In this document: positions 841-46,500 of the stretch, one piece after another
Layout: each line of letters starts with the position of its first letter
Numbering within the stretch: the first letter of the stretch is position 1
From: Seison nebaliae
Taxonomy: Eukaryota
NCBI GenBank assembly: GCA_023231475.1
Contig: JALJEE010000877.1
Location: 1 to 54,038 of the forward strand
Direction: 5' to 3'
Length of the DNA stretch: 54,038 nucleotides
Translations under genes and position numbers: made by a program
The notes under the pieces: generated by a model
Seen by the model: the letters and a program-made list of their open reading frames with translations, nothing else
Databases searched by the model: none
What the model was told of the DNA's origin: nothing

Positions 841-3800
841 ATGTATTATCAATTGGACGAGAGTGTGGAAGTGTCGTTAGTGAGTAGTAATGACGATACA
901 TCGCTTATTGAGGTGGTTGATGTGGCATGTAAGAATGAATTGACTGCAATTTTATTGAATCGATCACTCGTCATTTTGACATGTAAAGGAAAGGAGTTCT
1001 TGATAAGTGGATTTTATGATTTTTCGGAGAGATTTATTGAGGAGAACGGTCAACCGAATGGAAATCTTTATTGGAATGATGATATGTCGATCATAGTCTT
1101 TTCAACAACGAGTCGAATGCTCGTCACTTTCCAAATTGAAATAATTTCAAAAGAGTTTGGAAATATTTATGTTCCTCCCATAATTGTGGATGATGGTGGA
1201 AGAAATGGAGATTTGTTGACATCGAAAGCTGTCGCCAGGAAATATTCCTCTCAATCATTTCAATCAAAAATTGGTCATCAGAAGAATGGAAAGATTATTA
1301 ATAGAAACCATTCGGAAATATCATCAACAATTCATTTGATTGAATGTGAACAGAAGGGTCAACTGTTTCATCAGAACAATGTTGAATTCAATCGAATTCG
1401 AAGTACAAAAGGACTGGATAAGAACAGTAGTGAATTATATCAATATCGTCCGATGGAAATCGTATGTATCTCTCTGACACTTAGTTGTTGTAAATTGTTT
1501 GTTGACGATATCACTTCTGTTATTGTTGTTCCATCCAATTATGCTTGTTCTCATCAACAACTTTTGGTGATTAGTCGAACGAATTCGATTCATATTCTCG
1601 ATTGGAATTTGGAATATATCGCTTATTTCGGTAGTTTAGTTCATTCGGAATGTAAAGTGAAATTGGGAGATCGACTTCAATCGTCGACAGGTAATGAAAG
1701 AAGTTCATCGACATCTAGTAACAATTATCCAACGAATGATTCATCGAAATTGAGTGAGACGGAGAATAATGAGGATTGGAGAATCATGTCAGTAGATTAT
1801 CTCTCACCGAAATTAATCGGTGGTATTTGTCGGAATGGTTGTGCCGTTTTACTTCATTTCCAACAATTGGACACGAACACTGGTCAAGTGATAGCAAAGA
1901 TGAATGTTTTGAGAGATAACGGAATTCAACATTTATGGTATTCACACACATGTCTCTCAGCTAATCTGAGATATTCTCTTCTCGCATTCGGTACATTTAA
2001 CGGTTGCATTATCGTTTATCAATTAGATGAGATTAATTATGAATCGATGAAATATTCGCATGTACTCAATCCTGTGAAGTGTAATGAACATCATCGATCT
2101 CATGGAACGATTAATCAATTATCATGGAGTAGTGATAATATGGTATTGATGAGTGTGTGGTCGGATGGGAGTTATGCTCTTTATTCCGTCTTTGGTTCAC
2201 TAATTTTCTTTAATGATAAACTTTTGAATAATATGGGAATTGGACCTCCCTCTATTCGATGGGATACCAATGGTTATGGTTTATGGTTCTTTACTACTAT
2301 TCGAAATAAGAATAAAGATGTTGATGATGAGAAAAGAATATTATGTGGTCAATTAATTCATCTCAATTATTATAAAGCAGCATTCATTAACAATTCGAAT
2401 TATGTTCTCATTTTCATAAATTCTATCTCATTCTCATATTCCTCTTCTTTCTATTGTTATAGACGAATGGAAATCATTTACTCTTACATAATGATCATCG
2501 ATGTCTCATTGGATTTAACGAGAAGGATGGAGAGAATTCAATGGATAATAATGAAATGAGAGATGATGAAGATTATATGGATTGTAGTAGTCGAGTATGG
2601 CTCGAATTGGATCTGCCTACCAGTTATCTCATCCACAATTGGCCTATAAACGTTTATTTTATTAATTTCTCCTCTTCATCTTCATTTTCATCTTCCTTCA
2701 GCTTTTTGGAATTAGTAAAGATGGTAAATATGTGGTGTGTTGTGGAGTGAGTGGATTCATCGTATATAGTCTCCATTTGAATAAATGGATATGTATCGGT
2801 GATATCGGAGTAGAAAGAAGTTTCTCCGTCACATCCGGTATTTGTTTTTGGAATGAATTTATTCTTTGTGGAACGGCACAATTGGGAGAGAAGAAATGTA
2901 ACACAGTTTCCTCATAAATTCTTCGTTCGTTACATATTTAATTTCTCATTATTTTTCCATGCATTCCAGTTACAATTATTTAATCGTGATGCTCTCGATC
3001 CATATATGCCATCAAGAACTTCCATTCTAACATTACCAGGTAAATTGTGTTGTTTCAATGTTTATAATGATTGGATTATTGTTCTAACAACTGACGAGGA
3101 GTCATATGTAAACAAGAATGAAAAAAGAAGAACATCATCATCATCATCATCATCATCAAATACGGCAACATCATCCAATTATTCAGATAAAGGAAATTTG
3201 ACATTTATTCATATTCTCGGAATTAGTAAACATTATCAAACAACATCTTCACAAAAACAAATCGAAGTAAATTCACAATCAACTCCAACCATCCTCCAAC
3301 AACAACAACAACAACAACAATATGTGGAGAATAGTAATGAGAAAGGTTCGGCTGCTACCAGATTAATGGCATTATATGAATTCGATTTGACAAATCAATC
3401 TGTTGTGCCATTCTCTCTCTTATATGAATATACAGATTTTTCTGTACATATCGCTTTATCACCAATGCAAACGGATACGAAAAGTCTTCATGGAACATAT
3501 AGAACTGATTCGAGAATTCGTAATAAAATTCCATCTATCGGTTTATTAACCGAACCATCAAATCTTATCATTCCACAATCAACTGATAATGATAATGATG
3601 ATAATGATGGGAAGAAGAAAAAAAAAAAGAATCAATCCATGATGATGATGATGAGTAATAGGAAGAATGAGAATAATCTCAATCGGAAACATGATGCAAA
3701 AAGTATCATTCTCAATATTGGTGGTCGCGTTTTTCTTTATCGATTGTCGAAAGTTGAAAATCGAGATGAATCGAATAAGAAAAATGATCAACGTTTAACT

Positions 3801-5873
3801 CTCTCACCACCAATTCTCATATCGACACATTGTGAGAATTTGTGGTATGAACCGGCATTGATCGATAAAGATTCGAATGAAAATGAAGAATCTTTCTCTT
3901 ACAATTATCGACGTGATACTTTGTGGATGATGTGTGGTTATGATGGTTTACGAATATGGCTTCCCGTTACTTTATCCTCTTCACATTTCTTCGATAAATC
4001 TTTAACGAATCGTCAATTTATTACGAGAACGATGGTACAAATTTATCCAGATATTTATCCGTTATCCGTCTCTTTCGATTCGTCCACCATCTCTGGTATA
4101 TTTACCAATCCCCATCAATTCGATGTGAAATTTTCAAATGATATATCATCCATCCAATCCTCTTATCAAACCAATTCGCTATCTAACAAATTATATAAGT
4201 TTTATAATCGAATAAAAAATTATTCGAATACCATCACCAAACGATTTCTCCAACAAACACGTCAATCTTGTCTCCATCACATTCTTTGTCATTTATTACG
4301 ATATAATTATGACGAATCGGCTAACATCATCGCTAATTCGTCAGCTCATCAAAAATCATTTTGTCATGTTCTCGAACTTCTCCTTCATCAGACGTTGGAG
4401 GAAGAAGCGATGAAATCCGTTCCATTACCTGATTCACTCCTTCCCAAAATTCAAATTTTCATTACTCAATTTCCAATTTATCTTCAAGTGATTGCTGCAG
4501 TTATTCGAAAGACTGAAATGGCATTGTGGCCAATCCTTTTCCAAACGGGAGTCAATGTCCGACAATTGTTCGAAGAGGCCATCATCTCTAATCAATTGAA
4601 AACTGCTGCACTTTATCTCATTATTCTCGACACTATATCGAGCAGTGGAGAAGCGGAAACATATGCCATTCGACTTCTCACTCAATCGTTAGAAAAGAAA
4701 GAATGGGATATTATTAGTAGTATTGAACAATTTTTAGCATCAATCGATCCAATTGATTTAGATGGAGAAATGGATGATGATGATGAACATCATCATCCTC
4801 CATCATCCACTACTAAGAGAAATATAAAGAATAATGAAAATTCAATGACAACTATTATTGATGATTCGAGAAAGTGTTCAAATAAATCAAATAAGGAAAC
4901 GAAAGAAGAATTCGGATTAACAATTAGGAAAGCTCCTCTCAAAACTCTCACAAATTCACGACGTAATTTCAATTATATGGATTATACAAATCAATCAGAA
5001 ATGATGAAACCATTAACGACTTCAGTGCAAAATAATGAGAATTTATCTCATCGAACTTACAATCGATATCGATCGAAAACAACTGATGAATTACCATCAA
5101 AGAATAATAATAATAATAATAATAATAATATTAATAATAATATTAATAATAATAATAATCAAAATAATGATGATGATACCATTTCATCTAATGATACAAT
5201 TGTTCATGTTGATATATGTATGAAGAATAAGAAGATTAATCATACGAAACGTCCAAGTAGTTTATCATCAATTCGAGATTTGATCAATAATAATGAACAG
5301 AATTTATCTGATCAAATGTTCATTCATAATTGTGAAAAGAAAGTAAATGATAAATCGAAATTGATATCAGATGAATCATTTCAAACTCAATTTATTTCTT
5401 CTATTGTCGCTGATAGTAATGAGGATGCACATCGTCGTTTGTCCAATGAGATAAAATTTCGTCCAAAATTTATTGATCAAACAATTAATAATAAATTGGA
5501 GGAATATTTGTCGGAAGGTGATATTCGATCTTTTGGAGAGATTATCGGTCGAATGAGATATTTCAATGAGAATGACTGGCTAAGAAAGAATTATAATAAA
5601 TTTATTTTATCATCTTCATCTTGTGTGGAAACATTCTTCTTGAAAGTTCATCAATCCTTCAACATTCCTCTTCCAACAACTGACTATTGTCACGATCATC
5701 ATTTATCTTGTTCTTTAGTATCGATGACAGATGTCCAATCGTCAATCTTACCTGATGGCATCAAAACTACTCTACGAAATTATAATGAAAATTATACAGG
5801 AACTATCGATCTCTCTTCACTCACCACTGACACAACTGACACACACAGTCAAATCAACGAACGAATAACACAA

Positions 5874-5911
<38 letters not shown>

Positions 5912-7059
5912 GGAGAATAATAATTCTAAATCATTCAAGTTAATTGTATCAGCAACGACCTCGTCTTTCCATCGATATAATTCAGATAATTGTTTATTAA
6001 ATGATTTGAATCGATCGAATTCCATCGACAGTTCCATCAAATCCATTCTCACCAATACCACAACACTAACAAACAATGATGAGAAATCGAGATTATCGAA
6101 CGATGATAATGTTCAAGATACGTTTCTCATCAGAAATTTTTTCACTCTTACTAATCGTTCATTAATCGTTGCACAATGTGTCGGGTTAGAATCGATTCCA
6201 CATTTTTCTCTCATTCCTTCTTTTATTGAATAGATTTCTCTTTAAACTCTTTCTCATTAATGAATGGTATGATCACGCTTTCATTCTTCTGGTCGTACTT
6301 CAAGATGTGGTGGGAGGACAATGTTTCGAGAACGAACTTAATTTAATCACAATCGATATATCGATGTTAGATCGATTACGAAATACGATGAATGTTATTG
6401 AAGAGATTAGTAAGAATTATTGGTTGGAAATTCTCTTCTTATTTTTCTTTTTTCTTCAATAATCATTTCTTTTCTCCTTCATTTCCATCTCATATCTCAG
6501 TAAATGTCTACAACGATTCATTCAAAACACGAAAGAGAATATCCAACTAAAATTAGATGATCTTAATTTTCGATATTCATCCACTGTAACCGCAATCGAT
6601 ATCGCTCATCGCTTATCGAAATCATGTCATTTTACTGAAGATAAAATTTCGCCTATTCACAAAACAACTTCGAAATCGACATCTTTTCTTAATGAAGATA
6701 CTTCCATGTCGGGAGACGGAAGATTACAATCGACAATTAATCAACAAAATATTCTTACTTTTAATGATACGAATAGTCACTCGAATAAATCACTCCATTC
6801 CCTCACTTCTACTGTTTTTGACAAATCGATTCCTTTAAATGATCGATCAAATTTGATGGATAGTACAGATTTATTACCAAGAAATTCTGGTTCAGATTCT
6901 TTCAAATCATCATCATCATCATCATCAACATCATCAATAACGCCTAATGGACATCATTTGAACATTGTGAAAGATAAAAAAATTTATAAAACGAAAAATA
7001 TTAAAAAGAAATTATCAAACGATCAAATTGTCAACCTTCTCAACAACAACAACAACAAC

Positions 7060-7104
<45 letters not shown>

Positions 7105-7644
7105 TGTGAAGTATCAGAAACGGTAGATGATTATTATCAATGGGCAATGACAGAATTGCATAATCCGAAAATGAATTTGAGTATTTCGAATGAATTTCAT
7201 GTGAATCAGAAACGATTATTTTCTGCCAATTATCAAGAGAATTTAGATAACTCGTCAAACAATTTAATTGATTTCAATGATAGTCATTCGCCAAACTATC
7301 TCTTATCTACTTCATCGTCGAAGGGAGATGATAATATGAAAAATGGAGAAACCATCACGTCCCATCAATCGTCCCATTATGAGAGGCGTGATGCTGAAAC
7401 GAATCCGATAGAATCTCATCGCGATAATTATGCAAATTTGAATTGGAAAGTGGAGGAGTATCTCGACGAGTGTTCGAGAGGGAAAATGTATCGATCACTA
7501 ATGGAAGAACGTAGTGAGAAGAAAGAGGATATGACGAATGAGAAGTTATTGACACAAAGATCGTTGGAAGAGAAACATGAAGAAGAAGAAGAAGAAGGAG
7601 AAAAAGAAATTGTGGAAATTTCCAATGGTTGTTCCATACACTAG
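841..7644 (+). CDS. RIC1: RIC1 homolog (RAB6A GEF complex partner), 6 exons, about 2167 aa
   Basis: Exons 841-2403, 2463-2651, 2702-2905, 2970-6184, 6234-6422, 6501-7644 (6504 nt, one frame). RIC1 motifs: YLIHNWPI, SGFIVYSL...KW...VTSGICFWN, LHHILCHLLR, FCHVLELLLHQTLEEEA...PLPDSLLP, RKTEMALWPILF, LKTAALYLIIL. The N-terminal region is beta-propeller-like. Confidence 0.93.
5103..5160 (+). repeat. (AAT)n coding microsatellite (poly-Asn) in RIC1
   Basis: Visible AAT run encoding NNNNNNNNNINNNINNNNN. Confidence 0.9.
5876..5911 (+). repeat. (CAA)n coding microsatellite (poly-Gln) in RIC1
   Basis: A CAA run encodes 12 Gln; another Q run lies near 3297-3320. Confidence 0.9.
7041..7104 (+). repeat. 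(AAC)n(AAT)n coding microsatellite (poly-Asn) in the last RIC1 exon
   Basis: Compound AAC/AAT run encoding about 21 Asn. Confidence 0.9.
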
Positions 7645-12869: not shown

Positions 12870-15800
12870 ATGAAGAAACATATTAGTCGAATGAGAAACA
12901 GTTATCGTCGATTTAATGAAGCTTGTCGATCAGGAAATGAATCAAGAGCATTATCATACTACCGACGAATCAAAAATAATTTCATTTTCGATGAGATTCA
13001 TGCCCATATTGCCAATGCTTCGACAAATGGCGGAGGTAAAACAATTAAAAATCTTCCAAACATTCCTTTTGGTCGACGATCGATGAAACTGAGACATCGA
13101 ATTACTAATCAATTTCCCTTCAAAGTGAATAAGAAACGTCACATGAATTTCATTTTGAAGAAATGGTCGTTTCGAAGTTTAAACGAATATAATCTAGCTC
13201 TCATTATTCACACGATCTGCGAGAATGGCCTTCTCGATCTCTTCATGTTTCTTTCTCATAATTTTCTTCTTCCTCAACTTTCTTCTAATTTCTAGTGAGA
13301 TCGTAAATGATTTTCCGTTCGAATGTTCCTTTGAAAATGCGTCGCACAACAATATCATTCATTCGATTTGTTTATGTGGAAATGAAATGACTTCGATCGA
13401 AATGGTCAATGTTCTAATTGATCGAAAACGCATAAAAAATCATAATATTATCTCGTCAAAGAATGGTGATGGGAATACACCGATTCATTTGGCATGTCAA
13501 CTTCAATATTTTCAGTTAGTTCGTCAATTAATCGCGTTGAATGAAAACTGTTTATATGTTCGAAATGATGTAAATTTGCTGCCAATCGATTATCTGAACG
13601 AGAGGACATCGAGTGAATTTTATATTTATCTCCAGTCCATTATGTTGTTCCCAGCGACGACGATGTTTTCGATGGATGAGCATCTCTTCGACTTCTCATC
13701 CTCCACTTACTACACTTGTCGTTATTGTTCGTTGCCTCATCTCAATCCCAACCAAATGAGTACGATGATGAAGGAGAAGCATAGTGTGGACGAGACGATG
13801 GTGAAGGAGATTATTGATAATCTGCGAAGTATTTTAAAATTGATTAATGGAGATGATAATTCTCTAATGACCACATCGAAACAATTAAGACATTCAATTT
13901 TTTTTAAATTTCGACCACAAACCTTCAAACATGATCGTTCCTTGAATGTTGGAGTGAAGAGTCTTGATTTTCGATTATGTCAAAGTGTTTTCAACATTTC
14001 TTCTTTGTCATCATCAACACCATCAACATCATTATCAGCAAGTGGAGAATCGAAAGAAGTAGTGAACAATTTACGTACAATGAGTTACAAACAGCAAAAG
14101 ATGAATATGAATTCGGTCGATCAATTCTCTAGTTTACCTGATGTCCGATTAATGGAGACGAGTGACGAAAGGAAATATGATTGTCCTATCTGCTTTCGTC
14201 GGACATCAGCAACTTATCGGAAAGAGGAATGTCATCATCGATGTTGTTTGGATTGTTGGAAGAGATATCTAACCGAAAAGATAATATCTACTGAAATATT
14301 TATAGGCAATTCAAATTATAATTTATTGAGAAACTTTAAAATCGATTGTCCATTCTATGATTGTAATAAAATGTTAAAGAAGAATGAAATCGAAAAACTC
14401 CTGCCAGATAAACGCTATTTAGTAAAGAAATTGTTCATTCAAGTCGATAATCAATGTCGTAAATGTGGAAATGATTTATTGAAGAATTCACTGGATGTTA
14501 ATAAAGAAAAAACGGAAAATGATTTTGTTGAAAAGGAACGAATGTCAGAATGTGAAAGACGAATGAAGGAATCATATCAAAGACGACATAGTAGAGGAAG
14601 TGGAAAGATGGAAGAGAATTCGTCGAATTTATCAACGACAAAATTTTCGGTTGTCGACACAACATCTAAAGGAAAAACTGTCACCACGACTAATAGTAGT
14701 AGTGAAAGTAGTGTTTGTATGGACTTGAATGAAATGAGGAGATTGAATTATCCATCGTTGTTCGGAAAGAATAGTCGATTGTTGAAGAAATGGTTAAATA
14801 TGATAAAACCTGAAACAATTCATCATACAGATGATTCCACGAAATCATTGAAGAATATGGATCGATTAGGAACAGCAGAACATTGTAGTAATTATCATTA
14901 TCAATGCCGATATTGTTCTTTGAATGAGCAACATGGACCATTGACATGTGAGGAATCAATCGGTTGGTATTCCATTTATCATTCACGAATTGATCAATTT
15001 AAAATTGAGGACAAATGTACGAATGCTCCGTACGAGAAATTCGAGAGCGATCTCACCGAATTGTGGATTCTGAAGAATTCCAAACGATGTCCCAATTGTC
15101 ACGTGGCCATCGAGAAGAATGATGGATGTAATCATATGAAATGTATGAGATGTTTCCATCAATTCTGTTGGGTATGTTTGGATGATTGGAAGGGACATGG
15201 AGCGAACACTGGAGGTTATTATCAATGTAATCGTACGGATAAGATTACGAGTCAATTGTATTCGAGGAGGAAATTCCTTCATCGCTTTAACAAAAAGAAT
15301 GATAGTTCTTTTATGAATCTTTTACTTTTATCGTTTAGTCGTCGTTATGAATATTATGAGAAGAATGAAAATATGCTGAAAGAGACGATAAAGAATTCTC
15401 GATATCATATCATTCAGTTATTTCTCGCAACGATGCTCCGACGAGATATTCGAATACGAAAATCTTTAAAAACTTCTTTGAATGTTCGACGAACGAATTC
15501 GTTTCGCATAACTCGTCGCCGACAATTTTCGTTATCTCCATCATCCACAATCATTCGAAGGAAGAGAATGGCACGAACACAATCACCGATTGGAATTGGT
15601 CGAAGTTGTTCGTTGAAATTATTGAAGAATGATCGATTGCATCGTAATATGAATGGAATGGATGATATGATGAATTTATCGGAATATTATAAGAAATTAT
15701 TAACCTTCCTCCAAACCAATTTGATCCAACGACAAGTTTATGAAGAACGAACAAATAGCGCTATAGTTAATGCACAGTTGGTTGAGCAATGTCCGATTAT

Positions 15801-16887
15801 TGGATGGATGGAAACGATGTTTAAGGAAATGAAGAAATCGTCATCTCTTCTCAAATGGTCGAATGCGTTCGCATATTTCCGATGGAGGAACTTCTCTGCC
15901 AATTTCAACAAATCTCTCACAACCGAATTATTTCAGTCGTCAATTCTTTATCATTTGAAACATGAATTGATTGCTTTCGATAAGAAATTCCGTCAATTAG
16001 AATACATCTACCATCATCTCTTTCAAATCTTATACTATAACTCTTATAATTTGAAATTACGTAATCTTCTCGAATTAATTACGACTTTACATTCGGCGCG
16101 TGTACATCTCTTAAAATTTTTGGTTTGTTCCCTACACAATGATTTTCTTCATCCCTATTGTCAAAATCAATCGATCGCCAATAGTACTCGATATCGACTA
16201 CAATTAATCCAAAAAAATACTCATTCTTCTTCTAAACATTTGGTAAAGTATAATATGAATGAGATGGAATTATCAGTTCGATTTCCCTTAAATATTCTTC
16301 ATTTGATTGATGGGAAGCAATCCACCATCATATGTAACGATATCAACAAATTAAGAACGTTCACCATCAATTTTCTTACAGTAGATCGTTCGGCTAAGAA
16401 GAATATATGTGATCTACCTTGGATCATCGACAAGAATGGTTGTCACATCAGTCTACTCTCAATCATTAATAAAATACCAATCGTTCAACAATACATCGAC
16501 CATATGATGAAGTTGCAGTCATTTCTCGTCACGTCAACCGCTGCTTCTACAACCACTTCACAATATGAACGGAAAGAGAAAGATATGGAATTGGAAGACG
16601 AACAATATAAAGATGAGAAGTTCTTTCGACGTTGTCTCAATTTCAAGTTTTGCAGTCGTTACATCAAATTGAAATTAGGGAATGGAACATACATCCCTTG
16701 GTGTACATTATATTGTCTTCAAAGATATTTCTACTTAATGAAGAAGACTACGGTCGTCAAAAATCGGGAGATGAAAGTGGACAAGTTAACTAAATTGTAT
16801 AATTATGTTCAATTATCGACGTGTATGAATAAAGAGGAAAGAAGGAAACTTCTCCATATGATTGAACAAATAATTCTCACAAAATGA
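12870..16887 (+). CDS. ANKIB1: Ankyrin repeat and IBR domain protein (ANKIB1-like, Ariadne-family RBR E3 ubiquitin ligase), 2 exons, about 1322 aa
   Basis: Exons 12870-13246 and 13296-16887 (intron GTTTCT...TAG, 49 nt). The N-terminal MRNSYRRFNEACRSGNESRALSYY resembles the ANKIB1 start. Domains: ankyrin GNTPIHLAC, RING1 CPIC..CHHRCCLDC..CPFYDC, RING2 CPNCHVAIEKNDGCNHMKCMRCFHQFCWVC, then HGANTGGYYQCN. The start may be ATG 12870 or 12891. Confidence 0.88.
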
Positions 16888-30224: not shown

Positions 30225-31085
30225 TTGTCTTTAAATCATGCATTAAATAATGAAATTTTATTGAAACTATTTCCTTCTTTTCTTCTATTTAACTGAAACA
30301 TTTATTTATTCCACTCTACGTATCACCATTTCCATGGAAACTGAGAACAGTTACCTTGTCACCATATCGAAGGATAAATAATAATTTTTATTTTACCAAT
30401 TCGCCAAGTAGTAAGCGAACAAGAAAATTCATTGGATTCAAGGACAAATATTCACAAAATTGCCATCAGATGCCCAATTTCCAGATTGAGAATGGAAAGT
30501 TCACTCTTTCTTCTTCCTATTTCGATATGTGACATCACACGGACGTTGTAGAATTCCCAACTCACGAAAACGTCGGCTAATTCTTCAGTATGTCGCTCCC
30601 AGAAATTAATAGAACTGTAATACACGAGTGAAAATGAGACAAACAAATAAATTTCTCTTATTTTCTCTATCTTTTCTATCCAATTTTATTACTTAGAAAC
30701 TTATCCACAAGCAGAAATTAGTTAATGAATAATTTAATCCTTATTGATTTTCTTCTCGAAATATTTATGTATAATATGCCATCACAATTTAACGTACGTC
30801 ATTTCCATGCCCATCATTCATAACAGGGATCAAATTCTGATTATCACACTTAATTCCTTCATATTTCGCATGATTTATTATCTAACTTCTCCATCATCAA
30901 TTCACTAATTAGAAATTTCTGAAAAATGTCTTAATTATAGGTAAGTGATCAATTAAAAAAAACTACTTTACATTTATAGTATTGTGAAGGATGTCAGCCT
31001 TTCTGGTTCTGGAAAGAAGTAGATTTTAATGGTAAAAATGAAAGTTTCGATCGTAGTATGAAAGCGAAGCTTCCCAATTAGAAAA

Positions 31086-31453
31086 ATGGCTGAAGAAAAG
31101 ATTGTGGTGGAGTATGCGGATGAGGAGAAGAAGGTTCGTGGACGTCCTTGTGATGCGTTAAGATTCGAATTGAAACAATGTCTTATGAACACCGATTGTG
31201 TATTGAAAGTTGGTTGTATTGATTTGTTATTTCTCCATTAAATTTTATGATTAAGAAAAATTATTTACCGGATGAATGTCTGAGAAACAAGAATTTACGG
31301 CCACTCGTGGACGATAGATGTTTCAAATTGGCCAATGCTTTATTCGAATGTAAAAGATCGATCGTTTATTTTCTTTTGTCATTTTTAATCTTTCTTGTCT
31401 TTTTTAAGTTGGATATGCGTTCTCGGTTTCGGGGGAGAAAAGGAGATCAATAA
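31086..31453 (+). CDS. COA5: Cytochrome c oxidase assembly factor 5 (Pet191 family, twin CX9C-like), 3 exons, 91 aa
   Basis: Exons 31086-31208, 31256-31363, 31409-31453 give ...RPCDALRFELKQCLMNTDCVLK|KNYLPDECL...CFKLANALFECKRSI|LDMRSRFRGRKGDQ, matching the COA5 C-terminal FECKRSxLDxRxRFRGRKG motif. Confidence 0.93.
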
Positions 31454-31694
31454 CTACGAACGATTTATATTTTTTATTAAATTAAATGTTTTCCATCTTT
31501 CATCTATCAGAAAGGAAAAATGTTTATAATGATGTTTTGGAGCATAGCTCGATAGAAACTATCCATTCTCTCATTTCGATAAAAAAAAAAGAAGAAAGTT
31601 GAAAAATGTTTAGATTGTGGAAGGTAGTGATGCTTGGAGGGGGCAAATGATGATAAGCATTCAATGAAATAACAATAAAGTCTGTCCAAGTTCG

Positions 31695-33611
<1,917 letters not shown>

Positions 33612-34367
33612 CTATATTGATATATATATCACAACTCCTTCGGAATAATAAGAACACCGCAGTGAACTACGAACGAAAGATGATCATACAGAAATAGAAA
33701 TCTTGGATAAAAATCGAATGAAAATTAGAAATAAAAATGTTTAAATTAAAATCAAAATTTCTATTTCACAGTAATTTATACGAAAAAGATGAAGAATCAG
33801 TTTAATTTAATTAATCATTTCAATTCAACTTTGCATAAACAATGAAAATATTTATAAATAAAATTCTTGTTAGGCATTAAAAATCGTTTTTTCTAAAATA
33901 TTCTCGTTTCTTTTCTTTATATCGAATCCCAGCGAGTTAAATTATAAACCAAAGAAAGATAACTTCTTATAGGAGTTATTTTAATTAAAATTTCTACCTC
34001 TCTCTTAATATAATTCTTGGGTCGGCAGGATCATAGGAAGTAATGCTGAAATTCTATGTCAACAATAACGCATCATCTATTGATTGAATAATAAAGGTGG
34101 AAAAACTAAACAGGTGACGAAAACCCATTGTATTGTGCTTACGTCGCAAAGTCGATGGAAGAGTCGAGCTGCGAACAAAATTAACCACTTTCAAATATCT
34201 CTGCACCAGGTGAATTGGCCAATCTTGAACATAAATACTCTATTGAAATGATCACAACAATATTATATGTACGATTAAGGCATTGTAATGACTTTTCGTT
34301 ATTCGAGAGACACAGTGGAAACTCATAAAAACCCCAATAATAACGGACAAGCAACTTAAATTTCAAT

Positions 34368-34660
34368 TTAAGAAATAAAAATTTGCAAAAATCGATGATT
34401 TACTAATGAAATCAATAATGATCTTTTGCATTGACTAACATTATTCGAATCAATAAGAATGTCATCCGCATATGTTATAACCGCAGGAAAGAAACCCAAA
34501 CCAACTTTAAATGAGAATAATCGATTAGATTCAATAACAATTACATTTATCACTTTTAACCAAGGAGCGAGAATACATTCTTGTTTAACTTATGTTTTTT
34601 TTTCCAGAACATATGGAAGTTTTTCGATCCATCTTTTACTCCACGGAAATAATTAGCGAA
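34368..34660 (-). mobile_element. Degenerate non-LTR retrotransposon reverse transcriptase fragment
   Basis: In-frame VKQECILAPWL (decayed GVxQGxxLSP) followed by VITYADDIL. A stop and a frameshift lie upstream. Confidence 0.75.
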
Positions 34661-37600
34661 AACTTCATTCCTAAATGAAGGAGAATAATCATCAATTCTT
34701 TCATTTGGTATTATATCCGTGTTTGGTACATGTTCCATATTAGCAGAATTGAAAATTACGTGTCTATTATTATTAAATCTATTATTAATAAGAAGTAATA
34801 CAATTTATTAGGTATTAATTATAAATTACGTATTTATAATTTAGAATACGAGAAGAAGATAGCCAATGAAGAAATATAATATCGAAACGAAGAAATTAGT
34901 GAATTTCTTACTTCCATAAAATTGATACGATCGAAGTTGAATGAAGTGAGATCGAACAACTTCCACTATGAGCAGCATCAACTTTCATTGATGCATTGTC
35001 GACGGGAGGACTGTTATGAGAAATATTTACTGTTACCTCAATCGAGGTGTAACACTCCATTTGTTACATATCCATTCAGTAAATTCATTTTTCCTGATTC
35101 CATAAAAGGATTTTTGAACAGACGAATTAACATGACCAATTGTCGCCATTCGTGAAGTTTCTTAAATGAGTTTCTTCATTCTTTAAAACTAACAATGAAG
35201 GAGCATCCGATGTCGTTACTATTATTACTTCACCAATAATTTCCCATTTCTTAGGAAAGGATAGACGAAAATTCCGTTCGATTTCGTTCTGACTTTAATT
35301 CTTGTTCTTGTTGAAAAACAATATTCGTGGTCATTTCTCTTTTTATAAAACAAAAGTTTCTGGTTACATAAATACGTAAAATTTGTTGAATTTTTTCATT
35401 ACGTTCAAATATAATCTCATTGTAACCGACAGTCCTACGCATAATAATCATAATAAATTATAAGGAAGATAGATAAGTAGTTGGTAATTGTTGTTTGTAG
35501 GGATTGTATTCCTCTTTTAAGGCTTTAGTCCCATCCTATTCGGATAATCACTCTTTCAATTATATTTCTTCTTCTATTGAATTGAATTGGATATCATTCA
35601 AAATTTAGTAGTTTTCGTTTAGTTGTTAGGACAAGAAACTGAAAGAACAGAAACAACAAATTGACTAATATGTTAAACGGAAATATTATTGTCATTCATA
35701 TGACTTCGTTTCCAGTTTTATCTTCATTGAAGCGAATTCAACGTATTTAGCCAATGGAACTGTTCGACAATTGTCAACGAAATATTAAATATTCTAATTT
35801 CCGACAATTGCTTCTGTTAATACTGATTTACTTTTCTCATTAAATGCATTCCGCTCAAATCAACATTCAGCACATGGTGAAATAGATGAGATAGAAAATA
35901 ATAGACAGGATCACAAAATAGCATCGTATCATCCGGAGAGCAAAATATACATTCAAACGGCGACAACATTTATCGCTCCCGTATTTCCTCGTATTTTCCT
36001 CCCGACCATATTTCTTGCCCGATATTTTCGTCCTACGACATTTCGTTCGAGTTAAAATGGAACGTCGTTAAAATGTCCGAGAATGGTTTTTTTTAAAGAA
36101 TACCAAGTCGTAAAGAAGACTTCGAAGGAAAAGTCGTGAAAGATAACTTTCCTGAGAAATGAATCATCCCTATCAGAATCATTAACTACAAAACTATCAA
36201 TTGAGGTTCATATGTCCTAAAATTTACATGCTTATAAGAATATCATTCCATTTCCTGCCAGCAACAGACGGCAGGTTTGCCAATCAGATATCGGTAATAT
36301 ATTTTGCTTATTTAAAGGTAATTTACCATTTGTTGTTAGTACCCATTGAAGATGAGCTCCAAATAATAATAGTCACGGAACTGTCCAATCTCCGAATTAT
36401 CGAATTTGAGAATTTTGAAATCTCCGAATTCTCCGTTCTTCATTTTTCAATTGTTTCCTAACAATTTGAGTTTATAAATTTCCTTCCTCTTTAAACATTA
36501 ATTTTCTTTTTTTTTCATTTTTTTCAGTAATATTTTATTGTTCAATTGAGTTCACAGGAGGATAGGAAAGAGGGACGAGAGAAATGAATTTCGTGAAAAA
36601 ACATTGGTTCCCCAATTCCCTAAACTGCCTCACCTCCATTAATCCATCAACATCAATCTTATCGTATTGATAAATGAAGAAAAAAGGAACATCTAATTCA
36701 ACTTATCACGTATTATCTCCGTCATGTGTCATTGGTCAACTAATTTATTAATAAATTCATTGAAACTTGACGTTCATCTAGTATTTCTTTAGGAGAGTAT
36801 TTAAGCAGATGAATTGGAAGAAATCTAAAGAGGAAAGTGAATGAAAAGAATTGAAAAAAACTTAAAATGCTAAACATCTAATTCATCCTTGTACGTATTT
36901 TAGTGAGGTGATTCAAATGATTGGAATTGATATACATAATTGATTGTATGATAAATGTATGTTTAGGGCGAATAGAATTTGCACAAATTTCTCAAATGAA
37001 TCACGTCGAATGAGAGAATTAATATGCGAGTAGGTGTAACACCATTAGACGAGGCGACAAAAAGAAGATTAACGAATGCACAGAACTACATCCGTCCAAA
37101 GTAAATATATTAGTATTCTTATTATTTTTCCTACTTTTTTCTCTATAATATTGGAGTAATGTAAAAATATAAGTGTATTCATTCTCTTATAGATCGTACC
37201 GTGCCGAATCATTAAAGAAAGAGATTTCGTCCTCATTTTCACCCGAATCCCCATCCTCCCCTTCCTCCACTATTTATTCGCCTTATAATATTTATCGAAT
37301 TGATGTTAATTGAATTGGATGTATTATATTATCGATAGAAAAGTGGGAAGGAATCGCGACCAATAAACACGACAGCGAGAATCCGGCAGTCACAAGAGGG
37401 AAATGTTTAATAGAAATTATCGCGCATTTATTTCATTCCAATAAGTTTCTTTCCCAGAAAACTGACGATTAGATGTTGATATTAGCTATTTTCATTTTAC
37501 TCTCTCCAACAATTTTCGTTGAACTTATATAAACATGATATTTATCTATAACATTTAGTCCAACAATTATTATAAGTATCAAACCAATTATACCGTTAAA

Positions 37601-40151
37601 CATATTCCTAAATATTACATTCGAATAGCAAGAAAGAATATTTGTGCAACTTCCTTGGAATGTCAGTTTCAACTGAAATATTTTCACATAAATCTGGCGC
37701 ATTTTCACACACTTTTTTGCAAGTTGTCGTTTTTCAAGACCGGTACCTGGACAGATCACAAATCATTTTCCACTTAATACAAATGAAAACGGTACACCAA
37801 AACGAACACTTGAACCTTTTCGAATTGAAAAAAATTCAGATTGGGTCTATTAATAGATAATTAATATTCCTTTATTCCACAAATAGCATATAAGACAAAG
37901 GTAAACCTGATTGGGAAAATGAAAAGCTTTATTTTTTTGCCCAAATTTTGCTTTTAATTTCTACTCCCAATTTGCTTACTAATAAAATAAATTAATCGAA
38001 AATTACTTCATTTTTTGATATTGGGCGAATTCTTAATTACACATAAAAAGCTTCTTCGTAACGCTAACCTATGCTCCATAATATATACATGGGGTCTATA
38101 TTGAAGTACCTAATATGTATACATAATACAGTTTCCGAAAAATTGTCGCTAAACTTCATACCGTTTTCTCCTGTACCTCCTTCCTTTGTATCAATTCCAT
38201 ATCTCTTTAGGTGGACACTCAGGTTCCAAAGAGAAAGATATGAAGCGAGATAGCTCCACAGGTTGAACGTAAAAGCATCTAATCGGTCGTACAATCGTTA
38301 ATGAAGATGTTTCTGAATTGAAATGATTTGAGTTTGAATCTTAATTCCAAATGATACGAATAAAGTAATAAAATGTGGGAATAGAAAGAGCTGATTGGAT
38401 GAATATATTGATGTTTAATGATCGATCCTTATTCTTCATTCGATGAAAAAGATAACGTCAAACATGAAAGTAAGATATCGACGGAGAATCGGTGCGATGT
38501 TTCATCTATGAACTATTTCTTCATTTCAAATGATAATTAAAAGTGCAGCTGGTTCGTTCTCTTCAAATGACAGCAATATGAAAGCATGAAGGTGAATGAT
38601 AGTTTTAGAAGAAATATTCATTTTCTACTTTTTCTAATTGGAAAAGGCATCACATAATACTGGCATGATAATAAGACGTTTGAAAACATAGGAGAATAGG
38701 AAGTAAAATTATTTCTTTTTCGAATGAAGAAGAAAATTATTTGTAGATTAATTAAAAAGTGCGAAATTGCCCAGATGGCTAGATATTGCTAGAAATAAAC
38801 AAAATTCTCGTAATTCCTCAGTAAATATGGATTGGAAATCTTAATCGAATTGGAAGGAAAGAAGAAGAAGAAAGATTTGATCGAAGACTTATGAATTGTC
38901 GGACTATGGATAAATGGATCTTTGTGTGAGTATAAACATAAGAATGGACTGGATGACTTATTTATTTAAATTGTTCTATTTGAAGATAAATAGTCAAATT
39001 GACGGAAAATAGATATGAATAACTTGAAAGAAAATTGTTTGTATTTTATCTACAAAGAAGTTAGTTGGTGGGAATGCTGGGTGGGAGAGGGTAGATGAAC
39101 AAGTGCTGTACAGATTAGTCCATTCGGGTGTGATTAATAACATTGTTTCAATTACAAATGCCGCATATTCTTATCACCATCACTATTTCGATAATATCGA
39201 ATATTCGAACAGTACGAATATGAGGTGGTTCAGTCAGCATTCACATTCATTGATTATTACTCATACTTTCACTTGCATTCAATTTATTAGTCAGTCAGTC
39301 ATCGAATGAAGAGAAACTTAATTTTGAAGATATTAAGAAACTAATTTTTCCCATCCCATCCTCCCCCCTCTCTTACATTTATTTTCCTTTCAATTGATGA
39401 TGTTTGTTTCATCATCGGCATAAAACTTACCTCTTCTTTCTTCTTAATTCAATTGAATTTCGTGTTTTGTGTAAATAATCGAACTGATTGATATTGCAAT
39501 TAGATGAGATGGACAATCGTATCGACGGCTGTAAATCAACTTGATGATTCTCTTCAGATACGAATAGGAAAAAATAACAAATCATCTCATACATTCCCCA
39601 ACGTTTTACCATCGCCACTCCAACTGCATATACGTAAGACAAATAAGATTCATCTCTTTTAACTCCTTTTCCCCATATCATTCCGCAATCCAAATCATTA
39701 ATAAAGATCGAGAACATATGACGGTACAATTAGCGATAAGAACTCGCCGAAATAAAAACATATCTTCTCCTTTCCAACTGATCATTAGGTCTTATAATTA
39801 TTCATTCTATCGATGAAAGCACCAAAATCCCAATAAACTGTACCGTTCTCTATTCCTCTCTCTGCTTGTTCATACGCCAACTACATTTTCAATTTCAGTT
39901 CAGGTGACTGAGACAATTACTTTATCATTATTAGATCATTAACTACACACTACTAATGTGCTCTGCTAATAAATGTTATAATTTGTATTTAAAAAATCGT
40001 TTAATATTTCTTAAACGATGGAATTTGAGTAAAGGGATTGAGCGAAGGTTAATTTTCTTCTACTATCCCCCGATAAAAATGAGCACACAGCATCTGACAA
40101 TCAACTGGTTCCTTTCCATTTACACTTAATAACCTTCCGGCTTTACAATTT

Positions 40152-42741
40152 GAATCTAGGAGCGGATCTCACCTTATAGAGGAACTCACCCTCTTTTTAA
40201 TTTTCGAAGTAGAAATCACTCTGTGAATAAAGGCTTAATACTGCAATTCGGAGAGGAACTCACCAACTATCAATATTTTAAAGAGGAACTCACTCAGTAT
40301 TGCCATTTCGGGGAATAACGAATCCATTTTTTTCAATGTCGGAGTGGAATTCACCTTATTTTTTCAATTTCAGAGAGGAACTCATCCATTTTTTTCAGTA
40401 CACAGAAGAACCTTTATGATCCTTTATGATATTTCGAAGAGAAACTAACTCCGTTTTTATAATTGGTAAAATAAGAAAGAATCTCTGATGAGGTCTTGAT
40501 GAAAACAATTACATTTCTTTAATTAGTTAATAGGATTATGGCGTCTTGACGTTTTCAAATAATTTGACATTAAAACACTGTTTCTTCAATTAATTACATT
40601 TCACAAATGAAAATGGTAACCAGCTATACACATCAAAGACGGCAATCATAAAAGTAGTCGATCATTGGATCAAAATACAAAAAAATTCTGTTAATTGAAG
40701 AGTTTAAAGAAAAAACATCGAAGTCATACATTTATTTCTTTAATCAATTAAGATCATAGTTAATTTATGACAAATGGTTCTATATTAATACATCGTTATT
40801 CTCGATTAACATTATCAAAATAACATTGTTTCGTTGAATTATCAATTGTTTATCTTCACCATTTGTGATTGAGAGTGAGAATTACTGAATTTCTCCTTAT
40901 CGTTTATAGAATCAAGGAAAAACTATAACATGACAATTATTTTATGAGGTGAGTTCCTCTCTAAATTTCAACTAAAAAGGTGAATTTCCTCAGGGTGAGT
41001 TCCGCTCCCAAATAGAAAAAATAGGGTGAGTTCCTCTCCGAAATTGAATCTAGGTATGAAAACCGCTAATTCGCTTTTACTTGCCTCCATGCACTACATT
41101 CAACGCAATAATCGGTAATTCTCAGACCATCAACAAAACTGACAAAAGAGTTAACGTAAAATTTCGTGTATCTAATAAATTTATCAATAATAATATTAAT
41201 ATCGTTGGGTATAATCAAAATTTTTAAGAAAATAAAATTAAAGAATGATTTTCTAGCACGAATACTTTATTTTGCTTCTCACTATCGAAAAATCTGATTC
41301 TCATGAATTTTTTGGTGCCAAACGGCGAATGCGAACGCGTACCATTCGCTTGTAAGATCCTCGCAGTGTCATTGATGCTTAACTGCAATTGTTTTATATC
41401 AAAATTGCAAGTAAAACAGTGTCGTAGATAGTAAAAACGAGAAAGGAGACAATTTGATGAAAGACAAACGAAACACTTATTTCTATTTGGGTCCACTACA
41501 ACTTAAGATTTTCTATTAGGTCCATTCAAATGAATGCTTCCTAAAATACTTGTTCACTTTTTCTAATTAAGCGAATTCACAATTCGATTTATTATTGATA
41601 TGTTAGGTTTCTTCCTGAATGATATATATTTTATTTCACTTTAATAATTTAATAAGAATATTTTCAATTAAACACACTTATTTGGAAAGGTGCAAAGTTC
41701 CTTGTGTGTACAATTGACATTGATAATACCTATGCATTTTGTCCAATCATATAATTTGTTTTTGGAACTACTCGATTCTTCGTTTTATATGTTGTATAAG
41801 TGTTAAAGTTTTATCTGAATTATATTAAAACGCCGTCTCGTAAACAGTTGTTTTGAACTATTTGTATTCATTAGTACGTATACATTAAATACATTATACA
41901 TTTTGAACTGGTTTGGTTTATTGATATCACCATATAATTTTCATCGATTTTTCAGATACTGAAGTCATACTTATCGCGCAGTTTGTGAGTTTACTAAAAG
42001 TGCATCAATTTTTGAAAACAGTATGTAGGAAGAATGGTTTATTAATTGTTAATCTAATTTATATTGAAAAGTTTAAGAAGTTTGGATCAATATCAATGAA
42101 ATTGTAATCCGCATGTTTTAGTTTTGCATCAAGTTTAGTTTTTAGTTTTTAAGCAGTATTGTTGTAGGTCGAACTAGAGCTGTCCGAACGAACACGAACA
42201 GAATATACATTTTTCGAACGAAAAGTGTGGAGAAAAGTCGAACGATTTATAAAAAACAAATTTCATGAAACTCCTATACATTGTTCAAAGATGCTATTCT
42301 TGAAAAGTGTTCACATCAGGTGTTTGAACAAAGTTTGAACAAAGTTTGGACAATTATTTAATTAATTAATAATAATACTAATAATTAATGTAATAACTAA
42401 AAAGTTCAGAATCCCGCAGGAACCAGGGCTTAGCCGGAATTTTATAAAATTCAAAATGATCATAACGCGATCAAGAATCATTCCTTGTGCCTTATGAATA
42501 GTGCAAGCGTATGAAACTTTCAAAGGGAACTGATAACGCTTCACCATGAACGAACAGTTGTATTCACAACGTTTTATTTGATTCGACTTAATTTGTAATT
42601 GTTATAATGTATTTCTTCTATTCGGATGGAGTCTCACCCTGAGGTTGAGGGTGAGACCCTCTCCGAAATTAAAGTTATTCCCGCTCCAAAAATAGACAAG
42701 AAGGTGAGAGTAGCTGTAAAGTGAGAGTAGCTCCTAGATTC
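40152..42741. mobile_element. Putative inverted-repeat (TIR/foldback-like) element with GAGGAACTCACC subterminal repeats
   Basis: The left end GAATCTAGGAGCGGATCTCACCTTATAGAGGAACTCACC (40152) matches the reverse complement of 42703-42741 (GAATCTAGGAGCTACTCTCACTTTACAGCTACTCTCACC). About 6 degenerate GAGGAACTCACC copies lie at 40160-40450, with inverted copies at 40945-41045 and 42625-42720. Confidence 0.55.
42420..42547 (-). pseudogene. PIF1-family helicase C-terminal fragment (TE-derived relic)
   Basis: KRYQFPLKVSYACTIHKAQGMILDRVMI matches the PIF1/Helitron helicase RxQFP..AxAxTIHKxQG motif. The frame is truncated. Confidence 0.8.
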
Positions 42742-42868
42742 TACTATTTCTTCTATTTTGGAGTGAGTCTCACCCTGAGGAAATCCACCTAATTTGTTAT
42801 CAAAAAAAAATCTATATCTACTTCTATATTTTATCTAAAAAAAAAAAAATCCACCTCATAAAAAAATA
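42742..42868. repeat. Inverted copy of the 40935-41030 repeat block
   Basis: The reverse complement AGGTGGATTTCCTCAGGGTGAGACTCACTCCAAAATAGAAGAAATAG aligns with AGGTGAATTTCCTCAGGGTGAGTTCCGCTCCCAAATAGAAAAAATAG at about 40978-41024. Confidence 0.75.
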
Positions 42869-43564
42869 TTATACTTTAAGAAAAAAAAAGATAAATAAGT
42901 AACAACAATTAAAGAAAATTTACCACAAAAATATTAGAAACAAATAGAAATAATGAACAAAGTTATTCTGAAAGATTGAAAATGGCAAAAATTTTACAAA
43001 AAAATTCTTCGAGATTGTCAATTTCGAAATTCTGGATTACCGTCTTTAATTGTTCATCTCTCACCTTCTGCTCTTTTCGAATGCGCTTCTTTATCCCGTC
43101 TTCGACCAACTTATATTGTACATTTTCATGTTAAAAACAATTATACAAACACATTATACAAAAAATTTAAACAATATTCAATCTGAAGCCAAAAAGTAGA
43201 TCTGGGAGAAGTGTTGTAGTTGTCTCTAGTTGTGTTAAAACCTCATCGGACATAACCAACAGAGACATATTGGAATCAAATATCCAGAACCATGTCAGAA
43301 TGGAACATATAGAGATGTATATGCATATCTCCACAAATCTCTCTTATCAGAAAAAGGTTCGGTGGAGAAAAAGGAATTCTTCGTTACCATTCCAAAGAAA
43401 GAATTTGACGTCGTATACGATGTAAGCTTTTAACCAAACGATATCGAAATAAGGTCATTTGCAGTGACAGAGAAGATGTTCAATATATATTTTACGTTTT
43501 ATTTCAATATTTTCAACATGAGACATTTTTTTTAAAGAATTTCCCATCAAAATTATAAGTTAAT

Positions 43565-46500
43565 TTATTTTTTCAATATTGCATCCGACATTCTCCACAA
43601 TTCCTCATCGTTATAACAATTCTGAAAAGAATCGAAATATTTCAATAAACTTCCATTCTCCTCGAATTGATAGGTTCTTAAATAAGATGTTTAAGGTTTG
43701 AAACGTATGAGAATTCTAACATCTTCTTATAATAAGTTAATTGTTCCAAACATTTATATTGATACCATCTCTTATGGAAATTAATCTGATCATTCTTCAA
43801 CATATCTCGATTTCCGGTATTGATGAAGGATAAATCTTGAAGAATCAGTCCTCTACAGAATTGAAAAAAGAGATTCACTATAATTTTCTTATAAAATTAT
43901 AAAAATTCCAACATATATGGAATACATGGTGGCTGACATTTGGCTAAAGTATTTCGATAATTTTTAAACGATCCGGTACTGTCGATCAATTTGGAATAAT
44001 CCGCAATGATCTGAGAAAATATTATATTTATATTTATAACAGAATTATAATAACTTCTTGGATTTTACTTGACCAACCGAGTCGTCGTACTTGGGAAGAG
44101 TCAATGGCAGACAATATTGCCAGGAATGAATTATAATTATTCATTTTCCTTAAATACTTAAAATAAAAAGATTAATAGATGTCAATTGGTAATGATGATG
44201 AAACTTTTGTTATTGTTATAAATTTCCACATATATTTCTCACGTAATCTTTCACTCTTTTGTTCAATGATTCGTGATCGACACCTGACAAAAATAGAGCA
44301 ATTGAATCATTTGAATTGTTCCTTCGAAAAATGGAACCAGTATGATAATCGATTAAAATGTAAGGTGAATTCAAAAAGATTTTGACATAATTCTTCCGAC
44401 TGTAATTTGATCCAAAGAATAATTTCAGGGATCTTGATAGCTTGAAATTTCTTTGCATCTAAATAAGTCAATTGTTCTGCAATTATCAATGATTTAATCT
44501 GAAGTAAATTGATATTACTCTCATCGATTGTTCGTGAGAATAATGAGGTGGAATGGTTTCTTATTCCATTTCTCTTTTTCACCTGGACAACCTCTTTCAA
44601 TTTCTCATTGAGACAACGATAAAGTAGACGCGCTAAGATAAGTTCTCCGTCATTGATGAGAATGTTACATATGAAATAAACTAATAGTTGTACAGTCTCT
44701 TTTGTTAGTTCATCACTAATGAAAGAAAAGTGAAAGAATTTAAATTGATAATTTAAATAATATAATATTGAGATGACGAACTATAAATCGTGGACTATTC
44801 GAATGATTAACGAGAAAGATTCTTTTGTAATTTTACTGAAGATTTCGTTATCTTTATCATACTTCACTTCATTATTCAGTTTCTTTGTATAGAACACACA
44901 ATATCGGTAAATCAATTTGTAGAGAAGGAGATATGGTGAAATGAATGTACGAAATGTTGTGATGAATGCTTCTTCGTAAATCAGATCTTTCGATGTTGTT
45001 GTTGTTGCGTTGACGATTAAGGCGTCCATTGTACCAGATCTCAATAATGGAGTTTTCGTGTTCTCCTATAAACACATTTAATCAATTTTCCTTCTCGAAT
45101 TAAAGAAACCTTTTCTTGATAATTTAAATATTTTCCCACCTTTATCTCATCCAAAATGTTATTTCTGATAGAATAAAAAATTTATAAAATTTTATGAATA
45201 AATTGAATAAACTCAAATTTGGAATTGTCAATGAGATTCTGTCGATAATTTGCTTTTACTTTCCTGTCGTTCACCGTCTCATAAATATTCTCGCAACACA
45301 ATGGCATTTGATGAATAGTATTCTGATATTTTTCCCATTCAATCTTCCATCGACTCATCATCGACAACCATTCGTTAGTGTTAGTGAGATTTAATGAATT
45401 TAAAAATTTTTGCATTTTCTTTTCATTGTCCTCCGTCTGATAATATTGCAATAAAATTTTGATTAAGCAATCTCATAAAAATATTGCGAAAATAAAACAT
45501 ATTCGATTGCTAAAAAGTTTTTATCGTCTGATGAAATAGTTTGACCGAACATCTCCGAATAAGTCTCAATACCAATCGCTTTCCGAAGACTATTACAATC
45601 CTTTTCTCCATTGTGCCCATTCTCATAATCTGATGTGATTGATGAGGTATCAGATGATGGAGAAGATTTCATGTCAAAGTTTATGAACGCAGTTCCTCCA
45701 CCTCACAAAAAGAAGAAGAAGTTTGAAAGAAATAAAATGAATAAATTGTTGAAACTTTTCCCGAAACTTTGCACATTGGAAATATTACCGTCCGCATCAA
45801 TATCTCCCACTTTCCCACTTTGCTTTAGACCAACACCATGAAAATGGACTGATGGATGTTGTTGTTCATCATAACCCAGAATTCTACCAGTTTTCTCATC
45901 TTTTATTGGGAATTTCGTTTGACGCTCACCTTTCGCTTTGATATCTTTCCGATGAGATGTCAACTCTTTCGCTTTCGCTGTTCCATCAACTAAATTTTTC
46001 TTTAATTGTTTCTTCTCCTTCAATTTCTCAGTATCGTTAATATCGATCGATGTTTCGATGATCTTATCAGTTTTCGAATCACGTTGTTGTCGAAATCCTT
46101 TGATTCGATGAGTATCTTCCATCTCTTTCTCTTCCTCGATCTTCTCATGACCATCTGCCGTTCGTACATGTTTTTTACTTTTCGTCATATTGAAACTCTG
46201 TTTCTCTTCAGTAAACTCTGTTTTGTTATTATCAGTTTGTTTATTCCGTTTCAATGGTTTCATATTTGGTGCAATGAAATTGTCACTACGATCAAAAATG
46301 GATGTACCACTTGGAGCTAATCGGTTTGATGACATCAATTGATGTTCGTTTGATGAGTTGAAGAAGTTTCTCTTCTTTTGACCAATTCCATGACTACGAA
46401 ACCAATCATCTCTTAAACTTGAATCGTTAACTGTCATTTCGTAATTCGAAAATGAACTTGTTACTGGTGGTCGATTAATAAACGAGTTGTTTTCATCATA

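Follow-up and report, generated by a model that had tools for sequence, protein, structure and literature searches.

Predominance of GTT donor sites among the introns of a contig of the rotifer Seison nebaliae

In a contig of the seisonid rotifer Seison nebaliae (GenBank assembly GCA_023231475.1, contig JALJEE010000877.1), whose whole length of 54,038 bases was analysed and is referred to below as the window, GTT is, as far as the DNA can be read, the main form of the 5' splice site (donor), since 27 of the 31 introns that we placed begin with these three bases. At position +3 of the remaining introns there is A in three cases and G in one. A purine at +3 is among the most constant features of animal introns, and it is likely that the start of the intron is recognised in Seison in an unusual way, of which we found no earlier description from an animal. 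The 31 introns comprise 18 introns of RIC1, ANKIB1, COA5 and RAPGEF1 that had been listed in an earlier reading of the same DNA (the original prediction), the 12 introns of a collagen-like gene and one predicted intron of a homeobox gene.

Results

All 31 introns are bounded by GT and AG. The restoration of the reading frame and of the protein homology on their removal was judged by the deposited gene model, orthologue alignments, a domain profile and frame tests, and it is most exact for the eight junctions described below. The U12-type donor motif RTATCCTT is present in none of them (0/31). The 18 sites of the original prediction are confirmed, on the evidence of frame and homology, as real donors of short GT-AG spliceosomal introns. 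At each of these sites GTT forms the first intron bases on the strand indicated, the claimed lengths of 44–78 nt were recovered with the only AG acceptors that keep the frame, and each of the four genes named is matched by a domain or an orthologue.

The position of the junctions was examined by enumerating every GT/GC-AG pair within 30–36 nt of each of them. Seven junctions lie inside ungapped conserved blocks of the orthologue alignments, five of them in RAPGEF1 (donors at 44337, 44204, 44054, 43912 and 43720) and two in RIC1 (2404 and 2652), and an eighth, at 31209 in COA5, joins adjacent positions of a Pfam profile. Because none of the enumerated alternatives with a GTA, GTG or GC donor keeps these conserved blocks, the exact base of these eight junctions is settled, and the donor is GTT in every one of them.

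T is found at +3 much more frequently than it follows GT in general, and this bias is shared by five unrelated genes located on both strands. For the 18 introns (18/18) the probability is about 9e-8 against the frequency of T after the 4748 GT dinucleotides on both strands of the window (40.5%); for all the introns (27/31) it is 1e-7 on the same basis and 5e-7 against the intron interiors, which contain 43% T, 31% A and 17% C. With 87% T at +3, the earlier statement that base composition alone is insufficient holds. One rival explanation supposes no rewiring at all: the standard machinery would accept donors of very low strength where the introns are very short, and the preference for T at +3 would result from T-biased mutation under relaxed selection. 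The T-rich introns, with T following GT in 40–49% of cases, are in line with this idea, and so is the recognition of introns as whole units, which is thought to take place with short introns in compact genomes. However, the frequency of T drops from 87% at +3 to 42% at +4 and 16% at +5, and A, which makes up 31% of the intron bases, occupies +3 in only three introns out of 31, all three of them with the full GTAAGT, while drift predicts a mixture of GTA and GTT rather than two discrete classes. Since T at +3 stands far above its neighbours and the A-containing donors all carry the full consensus, pure drift appears to be quite an unlikely cause of the bias.

Beyond the GTT itself the donors are poorly conserved. 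Among the 27 GTT donors T is present at +4 in 13 and at +6 in 12, and positions +4 to +6 are close to the intron background with the exception of G at +5 (7/27 versus 9.6% in the background); G as the last exon base is also found in 7/27. For the 18 introns our recount gave the same numbers as the original prediction, six with G at +5 and four with G at the end of the exon. The donors conform neither to the GTRAGT consensus complementary to the 5' end of U1, as 27/31 have T at +3, nor to an extended atypical consensus of the Entamoeba type, as GTT alone is conserved. The near absence of a U1 consensus that had been claimed is apparent from the comparison with the nine positions of CAG/GTAAGT (the slash marks the exon–intron boundary): the GTT donors match at 2–7 positions and 19/27 of them at four at most, the GTAAGT donors at 7–8 and the GTGCGT donor at six. 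The last four exon bases are rich in A, which accounts for 67/124 of them (54%) compared to 36.6% in large exons (p = 6e-5), so that an AAA/GTT-like motif is formed.

The original prediction was restricted to genes other than the collagen-like one. For those genes the exclusive use of GTT stands (18/18), and the restriction is of consequence. The collagen-like gene also has GTT in 8/12 donors (one of which, at 22306, is ambiguous), and all donors of the window other than GTT belong to it as well, namely GTAAGT (3/12) at 21665, 21540 and 18490 and GTGCGT (1/12) at 20808. Three of these four are thus perfect GTAAGT sites, and because the base composition would not yield three of them by chance, a canonical class coexists with the GTT class. 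Of the interpretation that donor recognition has been rewired, the reality of the introns and the dominance of GTT in the window are upheld, whereas the word 'rewired' has to be qualified: the canonical route may persist because three perfect GTAAGT donors are found on the same contig, which suggests that the rewiring may consist in the addition of a second route.

In an all-against-all BLASTN comparison of the 31 introns the only matches were the overlap of the introns around the alternative exons described below and one 18-nt T-rich match. Since the introns have no similarity to each other, they are not introner copies, and the view that no introner insertion was involved is supported in so far as a recent introner burst is concerned. 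No small nuclear RNA (snRNA) genes were found in the window at Rfam gathering scores, nor were there any among the six weak hits at E up to 5. As a separate observation, a metagenome contig (L028) contains, at about positions 94–258, a U1-like gene whose 5' end has two positions that differ from the canonical recognition sequence and which is possibly a changed U1 of another organism.

The G+C content of the window is about 0.32, the same as is given for the assembly of Seison strain B in the available sections of the genome paper (PMC8351084). The intron density in the window is about 1.7 per kb of coding sequence, and there are single exons longer than 1000 codons, a sign of heavy intron loss. 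A donor-agnostic joining of open frames of at least 35 codons produced 504 candidates on the plus strand alone and was dropped as too noisy.

Introns of the individual genes

The RAPGEF1 gene on the minus strand was identified by its RasGEF_N and RasGEF domains and by C3G/RAPGEF1 orthologues with about 45% identity. Its ten sites are introns of the deposited model, and each is one GT-AG solution among one to five boundary placements that give the same protein; three of the junctions are located in an unconserved linker according to the orthologue alignment. Intron 1 (45702–45755; 54 nt, GTTTCA, phase 1) lies in an unconserved linker, where the other frame-keeping choice is also GTT, and intron 2 (45437–45498; 62 nt, GTTTTA, phase 0) in an unconserved region. 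Intron 3 (45165–45212; 48 nt, GTTTAT, phase 2) is the only GT/GC-AG solution at its place. Intron 4 (45066–45109; 44 nt, GTTTCT, phase 0) is found at the start of the RasGEF_N block with fair alignment, and the alignment is also fair, with a one-residue gap, at intron 5 (44716–44781; 66 nt, GTTCGT, phase 2). The following five introns are those in ungapped conserved blocks. No alternative to intron 6 (44284–44337; 54 nt, GTTCCA, phase 2) keeps the RasGEF block, the single alternative to intron 7 (44157–44204; 48 nt, GTTTCA, phase 0) loses 11 residues, and intron 8 (44011–44054; 44 nt, GTTATT, phase 0) is the only GT-AG solution. Intron 9 (43853–43912; 60 nt, GTTGGA, phase 2) interrupts the most conserved RasGEF motif, which is restored exactly by the splice, and for intron 10 (43677–43720; 44 nt, GTTAGA, phase 2) the only alternative of the same length is also GTT and gives a poorer fit.

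All ten RAPGEF1 introns belong to the 3' half of the gene; ahead of them is an intronless first exon of 1999 nt (45756–47754, minus strand). In the deposited model SNEBB_009824 (1845 aa), RAPGEF1 and a homeobox gene are joined into one by a 10-kb 'intron' (43617 to 33664, minus strand). The RAPGEF1 orthologues align to the read-through C-terminus, in which a stop codon at 43567–43565 yields a protein of 1221 aa, and the homeobox gene (33587–31698, homeodomain E = 2e-21) is probably separate from RAPGEF1. In its 5' part the deposited model alone, with no homology to support it, predicts a 47-nt GTT intron (33589–33635, minus strand). Between the two genes, the region 40500–43100 is a repeat or transposon region that contains a fragment of a helicase-like open reading frame (42365–42601); the depth of the contig in the DNA runs is 3–5 times that of the flanks there, and strand-switch joints are present.

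The collagen-like gene occupies 23.2–17.4 kb on the minus strand and was read by the continuity of its Gly-X-Y repeats; no Pfam domain was found in its N-terminal part. Its exons make up one open frame of 812 codons with 11 junctions, which passes through either of two alternative exons. The candidate intron at 22247–22306 (60 nt, GTT) is in frame and free of stops and has a T-rich tract followed by CAG, with an ambiguous donor. The intron at 21756–22057 (302 nt, GTT) is the only frame-keeping GT/GC-AG pair at its position on the 812-codon path. Two canonical GTAAGT introns, at 21604–21665 (62 nt) and 20845–21540 (696 nt), were read from the frame and the open path. The GTGCGT intron at 20711–20808 (98 nt) keeps the Gly-X-Y register, and its alternatives also have GTA or GTG. 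At 19686–20530 (845 nt) an intron with the donor GTTAAGT connects in phase 0 to the beginning of the following Gly-X-Y run, and the exon preceding it must finish before a stop two codons further on. The register is also kept by the GTT introns at 19376–19436 (61 nt) and 18978–19348 (371 nt). The introns at 18662–18752 (91 nt, GTTAGT) and 18080–18125 (46 nt, GTT) were placed by frame.

The alternative exons a (18661–18607) and b (18545–18491) are 55-nt paralogues, each of which alone keeps the 812-codon frame, while both together break it. They therefore look mutually exclusive, exon a being followed by an intron with a GTT donor (18393–18606) and exon b by one with a perfect GTAAGT donor (18393–18490).

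The RIC1 gene (841–7641, plus strand; Pfam RIC1, E = 6e-42) contains five GTT introns. Intron 1 (2404–2462; 59 nt, GTTCTC, phase 0) is found in an ungapped conserved block of the alignment with 10 RIC1 orthologues, where the alternatives have GC donors only, each of which removes conserved residues, and intron 2 (2652–2701; 50 nt, GTTTAT, phase 0) is in an ungapped, strongly conserved block that no alternative keeps. At intron 3 (2906–2969; 64 nt, GTTTCC, phase 0) the alignment is fair, with one-residue gaps nearby, and only a GC donor lying 30 nt upstream offers an alternative. Intron 4 (6185–6233; 49 nt, GTTAGA, phase 2) is the sole GT/GC-AG pair within 36 nt that joins both open frames, and its acceptor side is aligned to a conserved block. 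Intron 5 (6423–6500; 78 nt, GTTGGA, phase 2) is at a moderately conserved junction; the one other choice is GTAAGA, 13 nt upstream, which would make an intron of 126 nt and lose about 16 aligned residues. The RIC1 protein has 2167 aa compared to about 1400–1500 aa in the orthologues, being swollen by low-complexity inserts; 5017–5220 and 5852–6112 are examples, in which several frames have long runs of a single residue.

In the ANKIB1-like gene, recognised by its IBR and ankyrin domains, one intron (13247–13295, plus strand; 49 nt, GTTTCT, phase 2) joins the N-terminal exon to an exon of 1196 codons with the ankyrin and IBR domains. The search for orthologues of ANKIB1 gave two distant proteins only, and a weak ungapped BLASTP alignment to one distant protein, P0121, spans this intron, so that the junction is weakly supported. 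The COA5 gene (plus strand) was identified by Pfam Pet191_N, a match that is contiguous over the two exons flanking intron 1 (31209–31255; 47 nt, GTTGGT, phase 0): exon 1 reaches profile position 23, and residue 4 of exon 2 is position 27. The alternative donor GTATTG, 9 nt upstream, would lose three profile positions. Intron 2 (31364–31408; 45 nt, GTTTAT, phase 0) is in frame, stop-free and moderately supported; on read-through the Pet191_N match ends at the start of this intron, at position 58 of 67, and exon 3 is very short.

Discussion

We tend to the opinion, held tentatively and at somewhat less than an even chance, that the GTT donors are selected with little help from U1 pairing and that the recognition is U1-light, with U6 and U5 at its centre. 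It is favoured because a canonical U1 could pair with little beyond the GU of these sites. The start of the intron would then be fixed mainly at the hand-over to U6 and U5: the U at +3 would be opposite a G of the U6 ACAGAGA box and form a G-U wobble beside the U(+2)-A pair, the A-rich end of the exon would base-pair with U5 through the U-rich sequence of its loop 1, and the short (mostly 44–78 nt) and T-rich intron would be recognised as a whole, branch site and 3' end included. In the accessible part of the review by Parker, Fica and Simpson (Open Biol 2025, PMC11732430), the +3 base, which is usually A or G, faces G44 of U6 in a weak interaction, and it is from this geometry that we infer the wobble. 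A standard U1 would be retained for the GTAAGT minority, and the presence of these donors is consistent with a standard U1 still being there.

Six lineages with transformed donors, none of them animal, are considered in the available sections of a preprint by Roy and Bowser (bioRxiv 10.1101/2022.06.08.495308). According to the same sections, the standard pairing sequence of U1 is found in Saccharomycotina, Giardia, Thecamonas and Mamiellales and is changed in Entamoeba, while the U1 of Trichomonas is merely said to have been reported. These data bear on the possibility that U1 itself has co-evolved with the donors in Seison, and that U1, alone or beside a canonical copy, carries A instead of U opposite +3 and pairs with the GUU donors, the main rival of our reading, which we consider real but rather unlikely. 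Entamoeba and Mastigamoeba, as presented there, demonstrate that the 5' end of U1 is able to change to suit a transformed donor, and the two sharply distinct donor classes of the window, 27 GTT and three perfect GTAAGT, would suit two variants of U1. At the same time, four of the six lineages keep the standard sequence, and the Entamoeba consensus is extended, whereas in the window only +3 is conserved beyond GT, with +4 to +6 near the background, so that a matching U1 would gain one base pair.

A number of points weigh against the recognition by U6 and U5 that we favour. Our sample consists of 31 introns from six genes on one contig, which were placed by DNA frames, the deposited model and protein homology; the two sequencing runs compared with positions 31000–46000 consist of genomic contigs, in which there are no spliced joints. 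This model brings no independent RNA evidence and contains at least one wrong splice, and the passages on introns and splicing in the Seison genome paper (PMC8351084) do not state the method by which the gene models were made. The intron with the donor at 33635 is a model prediction only, and in place of the donor at 22306 the frame would allow GTAAAA (+6) or GTTTCA (+12) just as well. On each strand of the window a GTT is met about every 56 nt, and hence it cannot define the introns alone and most of the defining information must sit elsewhere; no strong branch motif was found among the 31 introns, YTNAY being present 8–45 nt from the 3' end in 28/31, which is little above the expectation for T-rich sequence. 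The G-U wobble at +3 has been demonstrated in no system in the literature that we found. What the sequence itself shows is where the introns begin and end, their preference for GTT, the missing complementarity to U1, the richness of the exon ends in A and the existence of the GTAAGT class, whereas everything said about the snRNAs is inferred.

Some of these points, namely the false 10-kb splice of the deposited model and the placement of introns from DNA alone, together with the position of some junctions in unconserved sequence, would also be in agreement with an artefact, in which the junctions are mis-set or the contig is unlike the rest of the genome. An explanation of this kind is, in our estimation, highly improbable, as eight junctions are base-exact by ungapped alignments or profile positions and all of them are GTT, and as the five unrelated genes on both strands have the same bias.

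In published data we found GTT-type donors for Entamoeba only (GUUUGU[U]). As far as the sections of the preprint cover it, Entamoeba is like Seison in having U at +3 in nearly all donors, fewer introns and no normal pairing of the donor with a canonical U1. It differs from Seison in that its consensus is extended and nearly universal and that a complementary U1 has been demonstrated, whereas Seison is an animal in which only GUU is conserved and a canonical GTAAGT minority is kept. In Saccharomycotina, Giardia, Thecamonas and Mamiellales, as described in the same sections, the preferred donor mismatches U1 as well, so that the recognition must rest on something else, and this is the model that we favour for Seison; nevertheless, their deviations are at +4 or consist of GC-rich motifs, the consensus quoted for them still has A or G at +3, and there is no animal among them.

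Roca and Krainer in 2009 reportedly described human 5' splice sites with a shifted register, of the GUUAAGU type. These human sites also begin with GUU, but they carry the full canonical motif displaced by one base, and such a GTT-AAGT arrangement is found in only 1/27 GTT donors of the window (at 20530). The two donor classes related to loop 1 of U5 and the ACAGA of U6 (PMC11732430, available part) are another parallel, since there the choice is made at the U5/U6 hand-over, the signals of the exon end and the intron start compensate for each other and +3 faces U6 G44. Both of these classes, AG//GUNNN and NN//GURAG, are described with R at +3, and neither combines GUU with exon ends rich in A.

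Our literature searches, which excluded supplements, yielded no mention of GTT donors for rotifers or for other animals. The passages on introns and splicing in the Seison genome paper (PMC8351084) contain nothing on the donor consensus, rotifers are not mentioned in a cross-kingdom survey of donors (PMC10599564), and the accessible part of a paper on bdelloid tubulin (PMC3464624) contains nothing about +3. The broadest form of our proposal, which we put forward with a little less confidence than the U1-light mechanism itself, is that Seison may be the first animal in which the code of the 5' splice site has been transformed. Most introns would then begin, genome-wide, with GUU after an A-rich exon end and be read without canonical U1 pairing, either by a second U1 variant or by a U1-independent selection by U6 and U5, while the GUAAGU minority would remain on the ancestral route, the two systems coexisting.

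Lineage-wide changes of the donor code have been published only for a few protists, fungi and algae. If the proposal is true, Seison would stand beside Entamoeba as a second and independent instance of U at +3, and this in a genome that still has some canonical donors, so that the way in which a spliceosome serves two donor codes could be studied in one organism, which would tell whether U1 has changed or U6 and U5 have taken over. The change of the donor would also be linked to intron loss, with about 1.7 introns per kb of coding sequence and exons of more than 1000 codons. Moreover, where gene finders and splice-aware aligners put a penalty on donors other than GTR, the Seison genome would be annotated wrongly.

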